Of a stretch of DNA of 64,000 bases, positions 38,821-58,942 are shown in pieces; position 1 is the first letter of the stretch; each line of letters begins with the position of its first letter. The translations under genes were made by a program, and so were the position numbers. Below the pieces are notes generated by a model. That model did no database searches. It was not told the origin of the DNA and was given only the letters and a program-made list of their open reading frames with translations. The stretch is from Mobula hypostoma (lineage: Eukaryota), in assembly GCF_963921235.1 (NCBI RefSeq), contig NC_086097.1, positions 93,126,001 to 93,190,000 of the forward strand, read 5' to 3'.

Positions 38821-40640
38821 TGGAGAGGGTGCAGAAAGGGTCGACAACAACTTCACCAGAATGGCTAGGTTATATCGTCTAGGACAGCCGAATGCAGCTC
38901 TTCCATTAGCAAAAGACCATGCCCAATGATTCATGTGGCATGAGAAAGGGAGGGTTGCTGCAGAACAGATAGTCCAGCCTTACCATTACACAGTGCAAGG
39001 CGAAAGGAAAAAGCACTTTATTGCCACGTATGTTTACAATGAATTCTCAGTTGAATCACATCTGCCTGGAAATCCATCGGGTTGCGCATCATCAGATGAC
39101 ATTTGGGGAATTTAATCCGGCTTGTTTGCCGCTTCTCCACCTGCTCCCAAGAAATAGCTTTCAACAGGCCTGCTCTCTGTGACGTAAAGGAGCTTGACCC
39201 ATCACAGTGTTGGGAATTTGCCGGAGGTTCGTCCCCTTTGGGTTAATTACGTGCCTGTTTTTCAGAGATGTCTCCTCGCTCTTAACCACCCACAAGTGCT
39301 TGGTTGACCCCCCACTCCACCTCCAGTCCTCCAAAACCACCACCTACTGCCTTCAAATCATCACTCAGCCCTTCAACTCCGATTACCTCTGCAACCCCAT
39401 GCTCCCATCTATCCACGGTCTTGCTTATCATGAACCTCTCTCTCACTGCCTTAAACATATTCAGGCTCTGCTTCCACCTGTAGGTTTTCACAAATAAAAT
39501 GGCACAGGTCTTTTATGTTTCAGAAAACCGTAGCAACTCATTTCTTGAGCACGAAAAGAAAACTGCACGCAGAAGTGCACTATAAACTCTTTACATAATT
39601 ATGTCATCACATCAGACTAACCTCTTAAAATGAAAACCCAACTCTATGTTGGTGGTTGTGAATCATGTACGTTTCACCAGTTACACTACCCTGCAAAGGC
39701 CCCCCCTCAGAATTCCCTAAAACCGGCATGTGAGTCTGTTCGGAGCTCGGATGAGCCGCCCGGCTCCGGTCCTGTGTTCCAAGGGTGGAGGAACAACAGG
39801 TCCCTCTAGAAGTGTGTTGACATGCTCACAGTCGTGTCATGATGGCAGGCGCACTGTAGCGACATCCTCCAAATCTTGGTGTGCCTTTCTACCGAAATCC
39901 ATTCATGTTTACCCTTCTTACCTATGATAAAAGTCTTTACTCCCTGTTCCAAAACACGAAACGGGCCATTGTAAGGGGGCCTAAAGGGATGTTGGTGTGC
40001 GTCATGGCAGACGAAAACAAACGAGGTGGGATGTAGGTCAACAGGTACCCTAGAGTGCTATACACCATAATGGGAGGTTGGAATAGGTGAAAGGGAATTG
40101 AATTTACTGAGGAGGGTGGAACATTGTTCACAGTCAGGGCATCAGGAATAAAATCACCTGGTACTCATAATAGCTATTCACATATAAACCCATCTGCAGA
40201 TGGCTGCAGGTCCTTATTTAGACCTGTTCTGAGCCCCAGCAGGACCCACAGGAGATGATCATGCCAACACTCATCAGTCAGGGAAGCCCTCAGAGCAGCC
40301 TTTAAGGAGCGGTGAAACCACTCACATAGGCCGTTGGGCCGCGGTGATAAACCATAGTGTAATGTAGCCTAACGCAGAGGTTCTGGACCTTTGCAGCCCG
40401 GACATCTGATATGACTGCAGTCAGAGAAAATATCAGATGGGGCATCAAACTGAGTAACCCAGGTGCTGATGAATGCCCAAGCCACGTCTGTAGCCATCAT
40501 CAATGCTAGAGGAACATCCTCTCGTCACCTGGTGTACGGCCCAGGTGAGAAACATAGAAACATAGAAAATAGGTGGAGTAGGCCATTCGGCCCTTCGAGC
40601 CTGCACCGCCATTTATTATGATCATGGCTGATCATCCAAC

Positions 40641-43600
40641 TCAGAACCCCGCCCCAGCCTTCCCTCCATACCCCCTGATCCCCGTAGCCACAAGGGCCAT
40701 ATTTAACTCCCTCTTAAATATAGCCAATGAACTGGCCTCAACTGTTTCCTGTGGCAGAGAATTCCACAGATTCACCACACTTTGTGTGAAGAAGTTTTTC
40801 CTAATCTCAGTCCTAAAAGGCTTCCCCTCTATCCTCAAACTGTGGCCCCTCGTTCTGGACTTCCCCAACATCGGGAACAATCTTCCTGCATCTAGCCTGT
40901 CCAATCCCTTTAGGATCTTATACGTTTCAATCAGATCCCCCCTCAATCTTCTAAATTCCAACGAGTACAAGCCCAGTTCATCCAGTCTTTCTTCATATGA
41001 AAGTCCTGCCATCCCAGGAATCAATCTGGTGAACCTTCTTTGTACTCCCTCTATGGCAAGGATGTCTTTCCTCAGATTAGGGGACCAAAACTGCACACAA
41101 TACTCCAGGTGTGGTCTCACCAAGGCCTTGTACAACTGCAGTAGTACCTCCCTGCTCCTGTACTTGAATCCTCTCGCTATAAATGCCAGCATACCATTCA
41201 CCTTTTTCATTGCCTGCTGTACCTGCATGCCCACTTTCAATGACTGGTGTATAATGACACCCAGGTCTCGTTGCACCTCCCCTTTTCCTAATCGGCTGCC
41301 ATTCAGATAATAATCTGTTTTCCTATTTTTGCCACCAAAGTGGATAACTTCACATTTATCCACATTAAATTGCACCTGCCATGAATTTGCCCACTCACCC
41401 AACCTATCCAAGTCACCCTGCATCCTCTTAGCATCCTCCTCACAGCTAACACTGCCACCCAGCTTCGTGTCATCCACAAACTTGGAGATGCTGCATTTAA
41501 TTCCCTCATCCAAGTCATTAATATATATTGTAAACAACTGGGGTCCCAGCACTGAGCCTTGCGGTACCCCACTAGTCACCGCCTGCCATTCTGAAAAGGT
41601 CCCGTTTATTCCCACTCTTTGCTTCCTGTCTGCTAACCAATTCTCCACTCACACCAATACCTTACCCCCAATACCGTGTGCTTTAAGTTTGCACACTAAT
41701 CTTCTGTGTGGGACCTTGTCAAAAGCCTTTTGAAAATCCAAATATACCACATCCACTGGTTCTCCCCTATCCATTCTACTAGTTACATCCTCAAAAAATT
41801 CTATGAGATTCGTCAGACATGATTTTCCTTTCACAAATCCATGCTGACTTTGTTCGATCATTTCACCGCTTTCCAAATGTGCTGTTATCACATCCTTGAT
41901 AACTGACTCCAGCAGTTTCCCCACCACCGACGATAGGCTAACCGGTCTATAATTCCCCGGTTTCTCTCTCCCTCCTTTTTTAAAAAGTGGAGTTACATTA
42001 GCCACCCTCCAATCCTCAGGAACTAGTCCAGAATCTAATGAGTTTTGAAAAATTATCACTAATGCATCCACTATTTCTTGGGCTACTTCCTTAAGCACTC
42101 TAGGATGCAGACCATCTGGCCCTGGGGATTTATCTGCCTTCAATCCCTTCAGTTTACCTAACACCACTTCCCTACTAACATGTATTTCGCTCAGGTCCTC
42201 CATCTCACTGGACCCTCTGTCCCCTACTATTTCTGGAAGATTATTTATGTCCTCCTTAGTGAAGACAGAACCAAAGTAATTATTCAATTGGTCTGCCATG
42301 TCCTTGCTCCCCATAATCAATTCACCTGTTTCTGTCTGCAGGGGACCTACATTTGTCTTTACCAGTCTTTTCCTTTTTACATATCTATAAAAGCTTTTAC
42401 AGTCCGTTTTTATGTTCCCTGCCAGTTTTCTCTCATAATCTTTTTTCCCCTTCCTAATTAAGCCCTTTGTCCTCCTCTGCTGAACTCTGAATTTCTCCCA
42501 GTCCTCAGGTGAGCCACTTTCTCTGGCTAATTTGTATGTTTCTTCTTTGGAATTGATACTATCCCTAATTTCTCTTGTCAGCCACGGGTGCACTACCTTC
42601 CTTGATTTATTCTTTTGCCAAACTGGGATGAACAATTGTTGTAGTTCATCCATGCAACCTTTAAATACTTGCCATTGCATATCCACCGTCAATCCTTTAA
42701 GTGTCATTTGCCAGTCTATCTTAGCTAATTCACGTCTCATACCTTCAAAGTTACCCCTCTTTAAGTTCAGAACCTTTGTTTCTGAATTAACTATGTCACT
42801 CGCCATCTTAATGAAGAATTCCACCATATTATGGTCACTCTTACCCAAGGGGCCTCTCACGACAAGATCGCTAATTAACCCTTCCTCATTGCTCAAAACC
42901 CAGTCCAGAATAGCCTGCTCTCTAGTTGGTTCCTCGACATGTTGGTTTAAAAAACCATCCCGCATACATTCCAAGAAATCTTCTTCCTCAGCACCTTTAC
43001 CAATTTGGTTCACCCAATCTACATGTAGATTGAAGTCACCCATTATAACTGCTGTTCCTTTATTGCAGACATTTCTAATTTCCTGTTTAATACCATCTCC
43101 GACCTCACTACTACTGTTAGGTGGCCTGTACATAACACCCACCAGCGTCTTCTGCCCCTTAGTGTTACGCAGCTCTACCCATATCGATTCTACATCTTCC
43201 CGGCTTATGTCCTTCCTTTCTATTGCGTTAATCTCTTCTTTAACCAGCAACGCAACCCCACCTCCCCTTCCTTCATGTCTATCCCTCCTGAATATCGAAT
43301 ATCCCTGAACGTTGAGCTCCCATCGCTGGTCACCCTGGAGCCATGTCTCTGTGATCCCAACTATATCATAATCATTAATAACAATCTGCACTTTCAATTC
43401 ATCCACCTTATTACGAATGCTCCTTGCATTGACACACAAAGCCTTCAGGCGCTCTTTTACAACTCTCTTAGCCCTTATACAATTATGTTGAAAAGTGGTC
43501 CTTTTTAATGCTTGCCCTGGATTTGTTGGCCTGCCACTTTTACTTTTCTCCTTAGTACTTTTTGCTTCTACCCTCACTTTACACCCCTCTGTCTCTTTGC

Positions 43601-43694
43601 ACTGGTTCCCATCCCCCTGTTGTGAACTAACCTCCTCACGCCTAGCCTCTTTAATTTGATTCCCACCCCCCAACCATTCTAGTTTAAAGTCACC
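40641..43694 (-). pseudogene. CR1 ORF2p (APE endonuclease plus reverse transcriptase) with a single in-frame stop
   Basis: ORFs 41649-43673 and 40641-41648 are contiguous and in frame, split by TGG>TGA (Trp in the 13.6-kb copy); motifs NARS, ITETW, GDFN, SDH, QGSVLGP and FVDD. Confidence 0.95.
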
Positions 43695-44505
43695 TCAGTA
43701 GCCCCTGCTAATCTCCCTGCCAGGATATTGGTCCCCCTAGGATTCAAGTGTAACCCGTCCTTTTTGTACAGGTCACGCCTGCGCCAAAAGAGGTCCCAAT
43801 GATCCAAAAACTTGAATCCCTGCCCCCTGCTCCAATCCCTCAGCCACGCATTTATCCTCCACCTCATCGCATTCCTACTCTCACTGTCGCGTGGCACAGG
43901 CAGTAATCCCGAGATTACTACCTTTGCGGTCCTTTTTCTCAACTCCCTTCCTAGCTCCCTATATTCTCCTTTCAGGACCTCATCCCTTTTCCTACCTATG
44001 TCATTGGTACCTATATGTACCACGACCTCTGGCTCCCCACCCTCCCACTTCAGGATATCTTGGACACGATCAGAAATATCCCGGACCCTGGCACCAGGGA
44101 GGCAAACTACCATCCGGGTCTCTGGACTGCGTCCACAGAATCGCCTGTCTGACCCCCTTACTATCGAGTCCCCTATCACAACTGCCCTCCTCTTCCTTCC
44201 CCTACCCTTCTGAGCTACAGGGCCGGACTCTGTGCTGGAGGCACGGCCACTGTTGCTTCCCCCGGGTAAGCTGTCCCCCCCAACGGTACTCAAACAGGAG
44301 TACCTATTGTTAAGGGGCACAGCCACCGGGGTACTCCCTATTACCTGACTCTTCCCCTTCCACCTCCTAACCGTGACCCACTTGTCTGCCTCCCGTGGCC
44401 CCGGTGTGACCACCTGCCTGCAACTCTTCTCTATCAACTCCTCACTCTCCCTGACCAGACGAAGGTCATCGAGCTGCAGCTCCAGTTCCGTAACGCGGTC
44501 CCTTA
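43679..44505 (-). CDS. CR1 ORF1p, coiled coil plus SGNH/GDSL esterase domain (N-terminal finger lost)
   Basis: Blocks VIGDSIVRG, CLPGAR, VHIGTND and DGLHLN; open up to the TAG at 43681-43679. Confidence 0.92.
43682..43688 (-). promoter_or_regulatory. Candidate -1 ribosomal frameshift slippery site T_TTA_AAC
   Basis: ORF1 reads ACT TTA AAC TAG; the -1 frame TTT AAA CTA GAA TGG TTG is the ORF2 frame. Confidence 0.65.
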
Positions 44506-47460
44506 GAAGGTGCGTGAAACCACAGGAGGGGAGAAGAGAACCAACACGTTCCACATTGACAAGAAGTGCCAATGGTGCCTGAACACGATGATGAATTTTT
44601 GCCGCTGGCACTCCACACGAGCAGCAGTCCAATCACACACATCCCTTCTGAAGCCCTGCCAAGCAAACTTTAGTGCAACCAGTTTCTGTGAGACCTTCTG
44701 GCCCAGATGCGAGAGGCCATGTATGGAGTCGAAAACAGTCCTTCTCCAGTTTGTGGGCACAATGGAGTGAAGGTGATTGGATGAGACATCACACAGGAGA
44801 GAACCCCAGCTTCCCCAAACTTAATGTCAGCCAACCACAGGCCCATGGCTGCTGTTCGGTAAACCTGGACCTCTGGGTCAGTAGCTTGGTTTGCTGCCAT
44901 GCTGGCATAGTCAACCCCTATGTGTATGGTCTCAACAGCTGGCTGTAAGAGACAATCAGCCACAGCATTACTTTTTCCCTTGATATGTTGTATATCTGTT
45001 GTGAACTTGGATATGTTGGCCAGGTGGTGTTGCTGTCCTGCAGGCCAAGGGTCTGATATTTTGGCCATCACATGCACAGGGGGTTTGTGGTCAATGAATG
45101 CTGTGAAATGGCGACTCTCTAAAATAAAACAAAAATCGTGGACAGCCCAATAGAGACCGAGAAGCTCATGGTCCAACGTGCTGTACTTCCTTTTAGGGAG
45201 ATAGTGCTGAAAATACGAACAGCTCCCACACACCTCTGACCTGTTGTTTGTGCACAGCACCCACAACAGTCTTAAGCATCAGTAATTGGGGAGGGGATGT
45301 GCCACGAAGGTCACGTTAGAAAGAGCTTGTCTGGTGTCATCAAATGCCCTTGTCACGTCCGCTGACCAGTCAAGCACTTAATTCGGGGTATTGCCTTTAA
45401 GCACACTTTACAGGGGAAGCATTAGTTCAGCAGCTCGCGGAATGAAATGGTGATAGAAATTCACCGTGCCTAAAAACTCCTGTCGTTTTTTAGTAGGTGG
45501 GAAATCTATAATAGCAGCTACTTTTGATGGGAGGGCTTTTGCACCTTCTACAGAGATGCAATGGCTGAGAAAGTCAATGGTTGACAACCCAAACTGGCAT
45601 TTAACAGGGTTAATAATCAGCCCGTGTTGGTTTAAGCACTCAAAAAGTGTGCGGAGCTGAGGTACGTCTTCGGATTTGAATGCAATGGTGACAAGTATGT
45701 CAGCTGGGTAAACAAAAAGAAATCGAAGTCTTTCAATACAGAGTCCATTGGCCATTGGAAAGTCTGTGCTGCATTTTTCAGTCTAAACAGCATGCACAGA
45801 AACTGAAAAAGGCCAAACAGGGTTATCACAATTGTTTTGGGAATGTCCTCTAACTAGTTCAACTTTGGAAATTATTAACTTTCTGGCTAAATGTGGGAAA
45901 CATCTTGGATGTGTGGGTCAGGGTCACGATCAGTGGTGGTGGCCTCGGTAGCACATCAGTAATTAACACATGGGCGGCAACTACCATCGGACATAGGGAC
46001 CATGCGGAGGGGTGAAACCCAGTGGCTATTCGACCAGTGTACAATGCCCAGACTTGTCATGTTGGCAAGCTCGGCCTTCACGGCTGCCAGCTTTTCTGGG
46101 TCCAGTCTACACACGCGGGTATGGACTGGCGGGCCAGTTGTGGAAATGTGGTGCTCAATCCCATGAGAACGTAGGCTTGGTGAGGTTTGGGAATTTGCCC
46201 AGCAGTCAAGTAAACTCACATGTGATGGTACATGCGCTTGACAGAGCTGTTGTGGGAAACTGGGGGAGGCAGGGTAACGACACATAGTCTTCCACATCCG
46301 CAAGCCAGCCATTATTAAGATCAACCAACAGTCAGTAGGTACATAGGAAATCTGCACTGAGCAGAGGTCTAATCACTTGAGCCAGATCAAAGTCACCCAG
46401 TGAGGCAGAGTGTCACCCATCATGTCCCGCAAGTCTGGATCCTGCCACTGTTGGCGTCCTCCAGTGAGGTTTTGTCCCTCTTTGCCCTCTGATCAATAGG
46501 TGATACCGGCAGCACACTCACTCGAGTGTCACACAGGAAGCATTGCCCTGAAAGAGTGTCTGTAATGAACAGTAGACAACCAGGGCTGCTGGAACCCACA
46601 GTGTTCACAGACCTCTGATGTCCTGATGCGTTGGCACTGTTAAAACTGCAAGGCAGCGGGCACTTCCCAGCATTCCTCCCAAAATGAGCCTGGTAAAAAC
46701 ACAGGCCTAGCATCATCTGTTTCACAGCTGCGGGCATCCTTATCTTGGAATCCTTGATGACCAGGCTTATTGAGGTAGGGAGAGGAGGAGGGATGACGCA
46801 CTGCCGCCCAGCAGAGTGTAGACTATCAGCCATTTTAGCAAGCTCCCTATAGTCCCACATAGGTGCAATATCTAGAACTTTCCTCAGGCATTTGCTGCAT
46901 GAAGAGTTCTTTATAAACAAAACAAGGATGGTGATTTCTCAGGAGAGATAGCATGCGGTCCATTAGCTCTGAACGCTTAGCATCACCGAAGCCGGGCAAG
47001 GAGAGTAACCGTTTGGCGCACTCAGTCCAAAAGTCTGTAAAAGGTGAGTTTTCAGCGATCAGTATCTGTCGTGTTCAGGCATGTGTTCTAGTAGACTCAC
47101 CCCTCCCTCAGCCGAGCGACACCACCACATAGAAATACTTGGTATTATTGGCAGAGATTTCTCGAAGCGCAGATTGAGCCTCAGCTAGTACGAACCAAGC
47201 GACGGCATTTTACACTCAAAACTCAATTTCAAAGCGACTGCATTGGCCGACATGTTCAATAACTCAGGAACTGTCCGAGAGCAGCAGGGTCACCAACGTG
47301 GGGTTTCACAAATAATATGGCGGAAGTGTTTAATGTTTCAGAAAAATCATAGCAACTCATTTATTGAACACCAAAGAAAATGGAACTCCAAGCGCACTAA
47401 AAATCCTTTATGTAGTTACATCATCATGTCAGACCAGACTCTTAAAGTGAAACCCCAACT

Positions 47461-57089: not shown

Positions 57090-58942
57090 AGCATTTTGTT
57101 CTGTGTGTGAGATGTGGGAGTTCTAAGAGACCTCCAGCCTCCCGGATAACCACATTTGCCCCAGGTGCATCGACCAGCAGCTCCTCAGAGAATGTGTTAA
57201 GGATCCGGAGCCACAGCACAATGACGTTTGGTTCATTTCGAAAACAGGAGCAACAGGAAGGTGCTCCCCCCTGGTTGCAGGAGACAGATAACGGGGTGAC
57301 TGTCAGGAGAAGGAAGGCAAATGGGCAGCCAGTGCAGAGTACACCTGTGGCTGTTCCCCTCAATAGTAAGTGTACCACTTTGGAATCTGGTGAGGGGACA
57401 ACCTACCAGGGCAGGCTGCAGCAATGGGGTCTCAGGCACTGTGGCTCAGAAGAGAGCAGAGATGGAGAGGACTGCAGTGGTGATAGGAGATTCTATAGTC
57501 AGAGAAATAGAGGTGAGATTCTGTGGACAAGGTAGAGACACTTGGATGGTGTGTTGTCTCCCAGGTGCTAGGGTCAGGAATGTCTCAGATAGGGTCTGCA
57601 GCATTCTAAAGGGTGGGGGGGAGCAGCCAGAAGTCTTGGTACCTATTGGTACTGATGACATAGGGAGGAAAAGTGAGAAGGTCCTGAACGGAGATTTTGT
57701 GGAGTTAGGTGCTAATGCTGATGCTAAAAAGTGAGACCTCCAGGGTAGTAATCTCCAGACTGCTGCCCATGCCATGCGCCAGTGAGGGCAAGAATATGAT
57801 GATTTGGCAGATAAACTGGTGCAGGGAGCAGGGTTTCAGATTTATCGATTATTGGGATCTCATCTGAGGCTGGTACAACCTGTACAAAAGGAACAGGTTA
57901 CATCTGAACCAAAGGGGGACCAATACCCTTGCGGGCAGGTTTGCTAGAGCTGTTCGGGAGGATTTAAAGTAGTTTGGCAAGGGGATGGGAACCAGAATGA
58001 TAGTGCTGAGGATGAGGTAGTTGGTTTACAAACAAAGGCAATGTGTAGCTCGTGATTGAGCTACCCCACTAGGGGATCAGCTATTCTGGATTGGGTGTTG
58101 TGCAATGAACCGGAGTTAATAAGCTCAAAGTAGAACTTTCAGGGGAAGTGATCACAATATGATAGAATTCACCATGCAATTTGAGAAGGAAAAGCTAAAA
58201 GTCAGATATATTGCTATTACAGTGGAGTAAATTGGAATTACAGAGGTATGAGAGAGTTGCTTGCCAATACTGATTTGAAGGGAATGCTAGCTGGGATGGG
58301 CAGAGCAGTGAAGGCTTGGATTTCTGGGAGTTATTCAGAAGATGCAGGATTACATCCTAACTAAGAAGTTGTTTTCTAAAGGCAGGATGATGCAACCATA
58401 AGTGGCAAGAGAATTCAAAGCCAACATAAAAACCAAAGGGAGGGCATATAATAGAGAAAAAATTAGTGGGAAGTTAGAGGATTGGGAAACTTTTAAAAAC
58501 TAACAGAAGGCAACTATAAAAGTCATTAAGAAGGAAAAGACAGAATATGAAAGTAAGCTAGACAATGATATTGAAGAGGCTGATCGGCAGGTGGCAAAGA
58601 GTGGTAATAAGGAGAGCCTTTTCTGCTTGGCTGCTGGTGACCAATGGTGTTCCACAGGGGTCTGTGTTGGGACCGTTTCTTTTTACGTTATGTGTCAATG
58701 ATTTGGACGATGAAACTGATGGCTTTGTGGCCAGGTTTCTGGATGATACAAAGATAGGTGGAGGGGCAGGTAGTTTTGACGAAGCTGAGAGGATACGGAA
58801 GGACTTAGAATGATTAGGAGAGCAGAGAAAGAAGTGGCAGATGAAATAGTGTCCGGAAGTGTATGTTTATGCATTCTACTTTGGTAGAAGAAATATAAGC
58901 ATCAACTATTTTCTAAAAGGAGAGAAAATTTAAAAATCTGAG
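57090..58942 (+). mobile_element. Decayed, internally deleted CR1 (ORF1 plus pieces of ORF2)
   Basis: AVVIGDSIVRE, CLPGARV, IGTDD; GVPQGSVLGP, FLDD. Confidence 0.9.

Follow-up and report, generated by a model that had tools for sequence, protein, structure and literature searches.

RESULTS

A CR1 copy with a heptamer at the ORF1-ORF2 junction

The window analyzed comprises 64,000 nucleotides of the genome of Mobula hypostoma (NC_086097.1, positions 93,126,001 to 93,190,000) and contains, on its minus strand, an element with an esterase ORF1, an ORF2 with APE followed by RT, a 3′ tandem-repeat tail and a 5′ truncation (Table 1). These are the features of a CR1 with an esterase ORF1, and from this architecture and the homology of ORF1 to bird, turtle and shark proteins, we take the element to be a CR1. 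The closest named relative of its ORF1 is a ray protein (93%); the focal ORF1 also has 59% identity with an entry labelled Pseudomonas aeruginosa, which probably stems from animal DNA contaminating a bacterial assembly. The copy was inserted within a Gypsy-type pol, of which decayed stretches lie around it (window positions 44670-46938 and beyond 40548; RT RNase H match), and it is flanked by a possible 5-nt target duplication.

An earlier reading, made from the sequence alone, had called this CR1 near-intact. The copy is in fact dead: its 5′ part is missing beyond about 44513, and a premature TGA lies at 41651-41649. The same sequence-only reading was correct about the junction: ORF1 ends with ACT TTA AAC TAG (43690-43679), a TGA (43697-43695) precedes the opening of the ORF2 frame, which shares 16 nt with ORF1, and the TTTAAAC at 43688-43682 fits the X_XXY_YYZ pattern, with ORF2 in the −1 frame. 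X_XXY_YYZ heptamers occur seven times in the 3,960-nt element if all frames are counted (0.0018 per nt), and an in-phase heptamer directly before the ORF1 stop is therefore unlikely by chance; a chance origin is also implausible because the heptamer is conserved across lineages, as described below.

Table 1. Features of the focal CR1 copy and decayed CR1 junctions in the window
Feature	Position	Strand	Evidence or remark
Slippery heptamer T_TTA_AAC (U_UUA_AAC), −1 register	43682..43688	−	43/45 family-A copies = TTTAAACTAG; majority state in all 7 subfamilies
ORF1 stop TAG, directly 3′ of the heptamer	43679..43681	−	TAG or TAA across lineages
ORF1, SGNH/GDSL esterase, 5′-truncated in this copy	43682..44513	−	PF13472, E 5.7e-17
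Linker in the −1 frame, heptamer to APE start, 86 codons, free of stops and AUG	43431..43688	−	
ORF2, APE endonuclease and reverse transcriptase, broken by TGA 41651-41649	40641..43430	−	PF03372, PF14529, PF00078
Candidate stimulator (inferred), G-rich motif, +11 to +20 after the heptamer	43662..43671	−	G conservation across lineages
Second G-rich motif, 54 nt downstream; inferred crossover into a family-F-like ORF2	43608..43617	−	
Out-of-frame ORF of 8 codons, AUG at +5, strong context (A at −3, G at +4)	43651..43677	−	AUG-bearing hexamer in 43/45 copies
3′ terminal short tandem repeat of the element	40548..40565	−	
Decayed junction of a subfamily-B copy, TTTGAAC TAA	50526..50535	−	Family majority TTTAAAC TAA, 25/30
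Decayed junction of a subfamily-C copy, TTTAAAG TAG	57963..57972	+	
Decayed junction of another old CR1 copy, TTTCAAC TAA	19630..19639	+	

Conservation of the junction among CR1 copies of this genome

The best 40 DNA matches of the focal family (family A) in the 3.5-Gb genome are 99 to 100% identical, and 150 of the 150 scored matches of a protein search were listed at 100%; family A is young and abundant. We sorted 151 copies into seven subfamilies (A to G) and placed the junctions by an ORF1 anchor that ends 8 residues before the stop, and therefore, the heptamer itself played no part in placing them. T TTA AAC followed by TAG or TAA was present at the expected place in 43/45 copies of A, 25/30 of B, 17/30 of C, 8/10 of D, 4/5 of E, 23/30 of F and 1/1 of G, counts that are not independent events, since the lineages are related, and that were obtained for B, C and most A copies with queries containing the ORF1 end. 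It is the majority or sole state in all seven subfamilies sampled, and among 15 A copies recovered with a query of 43% identity the junction was kept in 14. The C copies are old and decayed, and the exceptions across subfamilies are single changes or shifted anchors. When contigs of four runs, which drop variants, were compared with the junction, differences were seen at 43689, 43692 and 43695, and none within 43688-43679 among the matches listed, a comparison to which we give no weight. Among family-B copies, the length of the G run that follows the stop is hypervariable, and the run often throws ORF2 out of frame in dead copies.

Constraint on nucleotides at the end of ORF1

Codon usage was compared over the last ~140 codons of ORF1 in 12 lineage copies (23 to 70% identical in ORF1), which share 20 conserved degenerate residues. 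The terminal Leu is the sole residue of these 20 that is written with one codon (TTA, 12/12), and TTA is used in 0/35 cases at the three remaining conserved Leu columns. AAC encodes the terminal Asn in 11/12 copies, the exception being a mutated B copy, and the codon preceding the Leu has T as its third base in 12/12 although the residue itself varies (Thr, Cys, Gly, Ala, Asp or Ser). The third base is invariant in only 5 of 139 gapless columns: the terminal Leu, the codon before it and three columns with G, which we take to be Trp. Conservation at the junction is at the level of nucleotides and goes beyond what the amino acids need. Free synonymous change in the heptamer had been named beforehand as evidence against a frameshift; instead, the synonymous positions are kept in all seven subfamilies and in six bird-type contigs.

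Phase, linker and start codons of ORF2

A variable ORF1-ORF2 phase would likewise have spoken against a frameshift, but the phase is fixed at −1 and the linkers are open, with only their lengths being variable. From the heptamer to the APE domain, the linkers measure 86 or 77 codons in family A, 67, 69, 72, 50, 68 and 54 codons in the other subfamilies of this genome and 53, 90, 39, 39 and 39 codons in bird-type contigs (overall range, 39 to 90), and their phase is −1 in the least decayed copies of every lineage. For family A, −1 was found in 36/45 copies, a shifted phase in 6 and no callable phase in 3. The shorter linker of this family (77 versus 86 codons) marks a sub-lineage in which three copies have a 27-nt in-frame deletion in common. 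In 9 of 13 lineages, the −1 frame extends no more than 5 codons upstream of the heptamer, and hence, the ORF2 frame begins at the heptamer. A search for natural in-frame ORF1-ORF2 fusion proteins gave three long matches and no clean fusion.

The sequence-only reading had located the first in-frame Met at GVMYRPP. This is right for the focal copy (codon 185 from the heptamer) and wrong for the family, which has Val at the site of this private Met. The first in-frame Met of family A is codon 215, deep in the endonuclease (18 of 31 copies with a Met before any stop), and a start there would cost most of the endonuclease. No in-frame AUG lies within 5 codons of the stop in families A (0/45), B (0/28), C (0/25), D (0/10) and E (0/4); in B, D and G, a Met comes later in the linker. 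An AUG upstream of the APE domain had been regarded as an argument against frameshifting, and here the outcome is divided: it is absent in all 45 copies of the focal family and present in family F, where 26/29 copies have an in-frame TAATG (UAAUG) at the junction, and beside the stop (TAG-NN-ATG, in frame) in 4/5 bird-type contigs with readable downstream sequence. Near-cognate codons are found at different positions in each family.

Family A as a recombinant of two lineages

Families A and F are 63 to 70% identical in ORF1. Linker and APE are 91 to 93% identical in 7/8 pairs and 76% in one, and the switch in identity is located at a G-rich motif shared by both families (43617-43608), with an in-frame extra segment of 54 nt. 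The comparison indicates that family A is a chimera of the ORF1 of one lineage and an ORF2 close to that of family F. Family A is without the UAAUG of its ORF2 donor lineage, and Val replaces the second linker Met of F; its AUG at +5 has a strong context and is out of frame. The frameshift model predicts a family like A, which spread without a usable AUG and yet kept the heptamer, but the pattern may also be compatible with AUG-independent reinitiation of the L1 kind.

G-rich motif downstream of the heptamer

G is present at +11 to +13 and at +18 to +20 in 11/11 lineage copies and at +14 and +15 in 10/11. Both Gly codons of this motif are GGG in every family majority, compared to 32/93 Gly codons in the focal ORF2. 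A stable hairpin or pseudoknot stem 3′ of the site was not found at the focal junction (z = 0.14), and local folding of 11 lineages gave a z score below −2 in only one of them, whose hairpin begins far downstream. A two-tier G-quadruplex (G4) is the minimum-energy fold in 4/11 lineages at 60 nt, with four GGG tracts absent, and G4Hunter scores are 1.08 to 1.92 across lineages, which is in the top 0.1 to 3.6% of each locus. G4s are able to stimulate shifting at UUUAAAC, according to an excerpt of PMC3919603. More weakly than for the heptamer itself, these patterns suggest that the stop and the G motif at +11 to +20 may act as the stimulator, and the motif would then probably be a protein-binding site or a small G-quadruplex rather than part of a pseudoknot. 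A C-rich stretch ~645 to 685 nt upstream scored highly in several lineages as a long-range partner of the motif; it was set aside, as it encodes a proline-rich motif, pairs differently from lineage to lineage and is weak in family B.

Conservation beyond this genome

Among 43 metagenome loci, 7 are bird-type CR1s that extend to the end of ORF1, and the remaining 36 end before the junction or are other esterases. Six of the seven read T TTA AAC TAG; the seventh, which is decayed, reads T TTA AAC AAG and thus has the heptamer without the stop. In one of these contigs, the C-terminal 32 residues of ORF1 match a penguin-named protein. At the protein level, a Leu-Asn end was seen in 39/51 ORF1 proteins with the terminal motif near their end (from 88 matches) and, with a profile that included the LN columns, in 102/106 further homologues ending at the expected place (from 109 new matches). 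The latter set includes proteins named from birds, turtles, a lizard, frogs and a teleost.

Distant esterase ORF1s

We then considered the best 150 cluster representatives of esterase ORF1s, 101 of which carry the terminal motif 22 to 45 residues from the end. Their ends fall into LN (42), GN (13), KN (3 terminal and 9 internal), FF/FL/GF (11), other compatible dipeptides (8) and none (15); 62 representatives end in N, among them the 42 LN, 13 GN and 3 terminal KN proteins. A slippery-compatible dipeptide is present in 44/59 non-LN proteins, against an expectation of 13.1 derived from other windows in these proteins, a comparison in which the window was chosen after the ends had been seen and the proteins are related. 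Several switches among end classes occurred in the tree of the representatives. GN, KN and FF ends are what other slippery heptamers would encode, and this protein evidence provides a lead. A search for the DNA of the GN/KN/FF groups gave no match in the animal's own genome at E 1e-33, nothing useful in viral contigs and three MAGs with other LINE types only; genome-contig matches were mostly bacterial esterases or unrelated contigs. Some of the 15 representatives (of 101) without a compatible dipeptide are L2-type, and more distant esterase ORF1s, with neither heptamer nor LN end, were used as the outgroup; presumably, these are fish L2-type.

A LINE-like element of another kind was seen on the minus strand of a MAG contig (likely animal host DNA; stop near 1985). 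It has an esterase ORF1 and an APE-like ORF2 in the same frame, separated by a single TAG followed by CGG, and is known from one copy; the junction may be a readthrough site.

DISCUSSION

In sum, our data point toward a programmed −1 frameshift at the U_UUA_AAC that ends ORF1 of this CR1, with an ORF1-ORF2 fusion as the product, and from the comparative sequence evidence we consider this reading likely. It had been proposed by the sequence-only reading and is supported by the comparisons of heptamer, phase and open linkers, which make slip and fusion probable. In our model, termination at the adjacent UAG would be the usual outcome and would set free the esterase ORF1 protein, and a smaller share of the ribosomes would move back by one base on Leu-Asn and traverse the open linker into APE-RT, giving rise to a gag-pol-like esterase-APE-RT fusion. 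Such slippage would account for the translation of an ORF2 that has no start codon of its own. The sequence-only reading had offered three junction peptides; the established tandem-slippage model predicts the one with LN-LEW, and the FK form is not expected. U_UUA_AAC, like G_GGA_AAC and A_AAA_AAC, is among the shiftiest heptamers on mammalian ribosomes, as stated in PMC5009743.

The main rival is termination-reinitiation at the ORF1 stop in the style of SART1 or L1, in which ORF2 would start at an AUG where there is one and otherwise at a non-AUG codon, while heptamer and G motif hold the posttermination ribosome. It has precedents in the UAAUG with downstream element of SART1 and in the unconventional reinitiation at L1 ORF2, as far as partial texts on these elements go, the TAATG of family F and the TAG-NN-ATG of the bird-type contigs are what it would use, and it requires an open linker just as frameshifting does. 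However, no in-frame AUG is close to the stop in families A to E, near-cognate codons are not at a constant place, and the AUG that is offered in strong context in family A, at +5, is out of frame. Furthermore, reinitiation leaves the exact X_XXY_YYZ pattern and the −1 phase without a reason, and UGGGA lies downstream of the stop here, whereas TURBS motif 1 lies upstream (partial source). Taken together, we regard reinitiation as an unlikely route to ORF2, although both mechanisms could operate in family F and in AUG-bearing bird-type elements.

It is also imaginable that the junction is conserved for reasons other than translation, as a splice acceptor, promoter element, RNA packaging signal or RT template-switch signal, and that ORF2 is made from a processed or separate RNA. 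In some families, CTAG and TTTGGCAG look like the ends of splice acceptors; the G motif is GC-box-like, and the A/F crossover sits on it. Yet, AG is missing where the stop is TAA (families B, C, D, F and G), the later AG is missing in A, a shorter family-A RNA would still be without an AUG before codon 215, and the exact tie to the ORF1 stop and the −1 phase is left unaccounted for, which makes such a function very improbable. Least probable of all is amino acid constraint in both overlapping frames (Leu-Asn-stop and Phe-Lys-Leu) with an ORF2 start upstream of the overlap: neither short peptide varies among the lineages with DNA, but in the −1 frame of family A a stop lies 2 codons ahead of the heptamer and the stretch between them holds no start codon, the C of AAC would be free and yet is the majority state in every family, and the Leu, Gly and Lys preceding the terminal Asn are chemically unlike, and for family A this reading is largely refuted. 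The splice-acceptor, promoter and dual-coding readings were rejected on these grounds.

Coming back to frameshifting, we tentatively extend the model to the clade of LINEs with esterase ORF1s, from rays to birds, and a wider group around it. It is conceivable, if somewhat doubtful, that −1 frameshifting has served this clade for hundreds of millions of years while it swapped heptamers (U_UUA_AAC, G_GGA_AAC, A_AAA_AAC and U_UUU_UUN), that the vertebrate sites are stimulated by the adjacent stop and a protein-bound or G4-forming G motif at the fixed position +11 instead of a pseudoknot, and that the esterase-APE-RT fusion stays unprocessed.

Bird genomes have CR1 as their main repeat (PMC11835228), and translation of LINE ORF2 is described as an open question in PMC3894237. 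The studied LINE cases (L1 and SART1) use reinitiation, and a conserved frameshift in CR1 would be a precise and cheaply testable mechanism. If true, it predicts an esterase-APE-RT fusion, changes the annotation of CR1 ORF2 and the design of retrotransposition constructs, and adds a naturally occurring frameshift signal whose stimulator is unusual and apparently unstructured.

The same combination of esterase ORF1 and APE-RT ORF2 is known from vertebrate CR1 subgroup 7 with its type IVB esterase ORF1 (Metcalfe and Casane 2014, PMC4120745, seen in part), a study in which ORF1 shuffling was proposed for CR1 and in which the word frameshift does not occur. A proposal of frameshifting in CR1 was not found in the full-text literature, including the portions scanned of PMC5972666, PMC4255032 and PMC1965478, a scope outside which the primary CR1 papers and Repbase/Dfam notes lie; neither is CR1 mentioned in the accessible portion of PMC5009743. 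The UAAUG coupling of SART1 is shared with CR1 family F and absent in the focal family and four other tallied subfamilies, and a slippery heptamer is not part of the descriptions of SART1 and L1 in the excerpts at hand.

Coronaviruses (IBV) with their U_UUA_AAC and the gag-pol junctions of retroviruses share with the focal CR1 the heptamer class and, in our model, the logic of an abundant structural protein made alongside a rare enzyme fusion (PMC5009743, in part). In contrast to these sites, the CR1 has no detected hairpin or pseudoknot 5 to 8 nt downstream, the zero-frame stop abuts the heptamer, and the element is a LINE. A closer likeness in this respect is the −1/−2 shift of the arterivirus PRRSV, which is transactivated by a protein and has a conserved motif 11 nt downstream and no discernible RNA structure (excerpt of PMC7939443). 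The G run of the CR1, from +11, is also a short conserved unstructured motif, but the resemblance is positional only, the CR1 motif being G-rich and the PRRSV motif C-rich.

Among LINEs, the Dictyostelium elements TRE5-A and TRE3-A are stated to need a −1 frameshift for ORF2 (PMC5911963, in part), and +1 shifting or readthrough has been suggested for LINEs of Paramecium (PMC5405496, in part). Recoding in LINEs is therefore not new in kind. Like the focal CR1, TRE5-A and TRE3-A are APE-type non-LTR LINEs with two ORFs, and the −1 shift stated for their ORF2 is of the kind proposed here; unlike these elements, which belong to another clade and another host, the element described here is a vertebrate CR1 with a conserved U_UUA_AAC and an adjacent stop.
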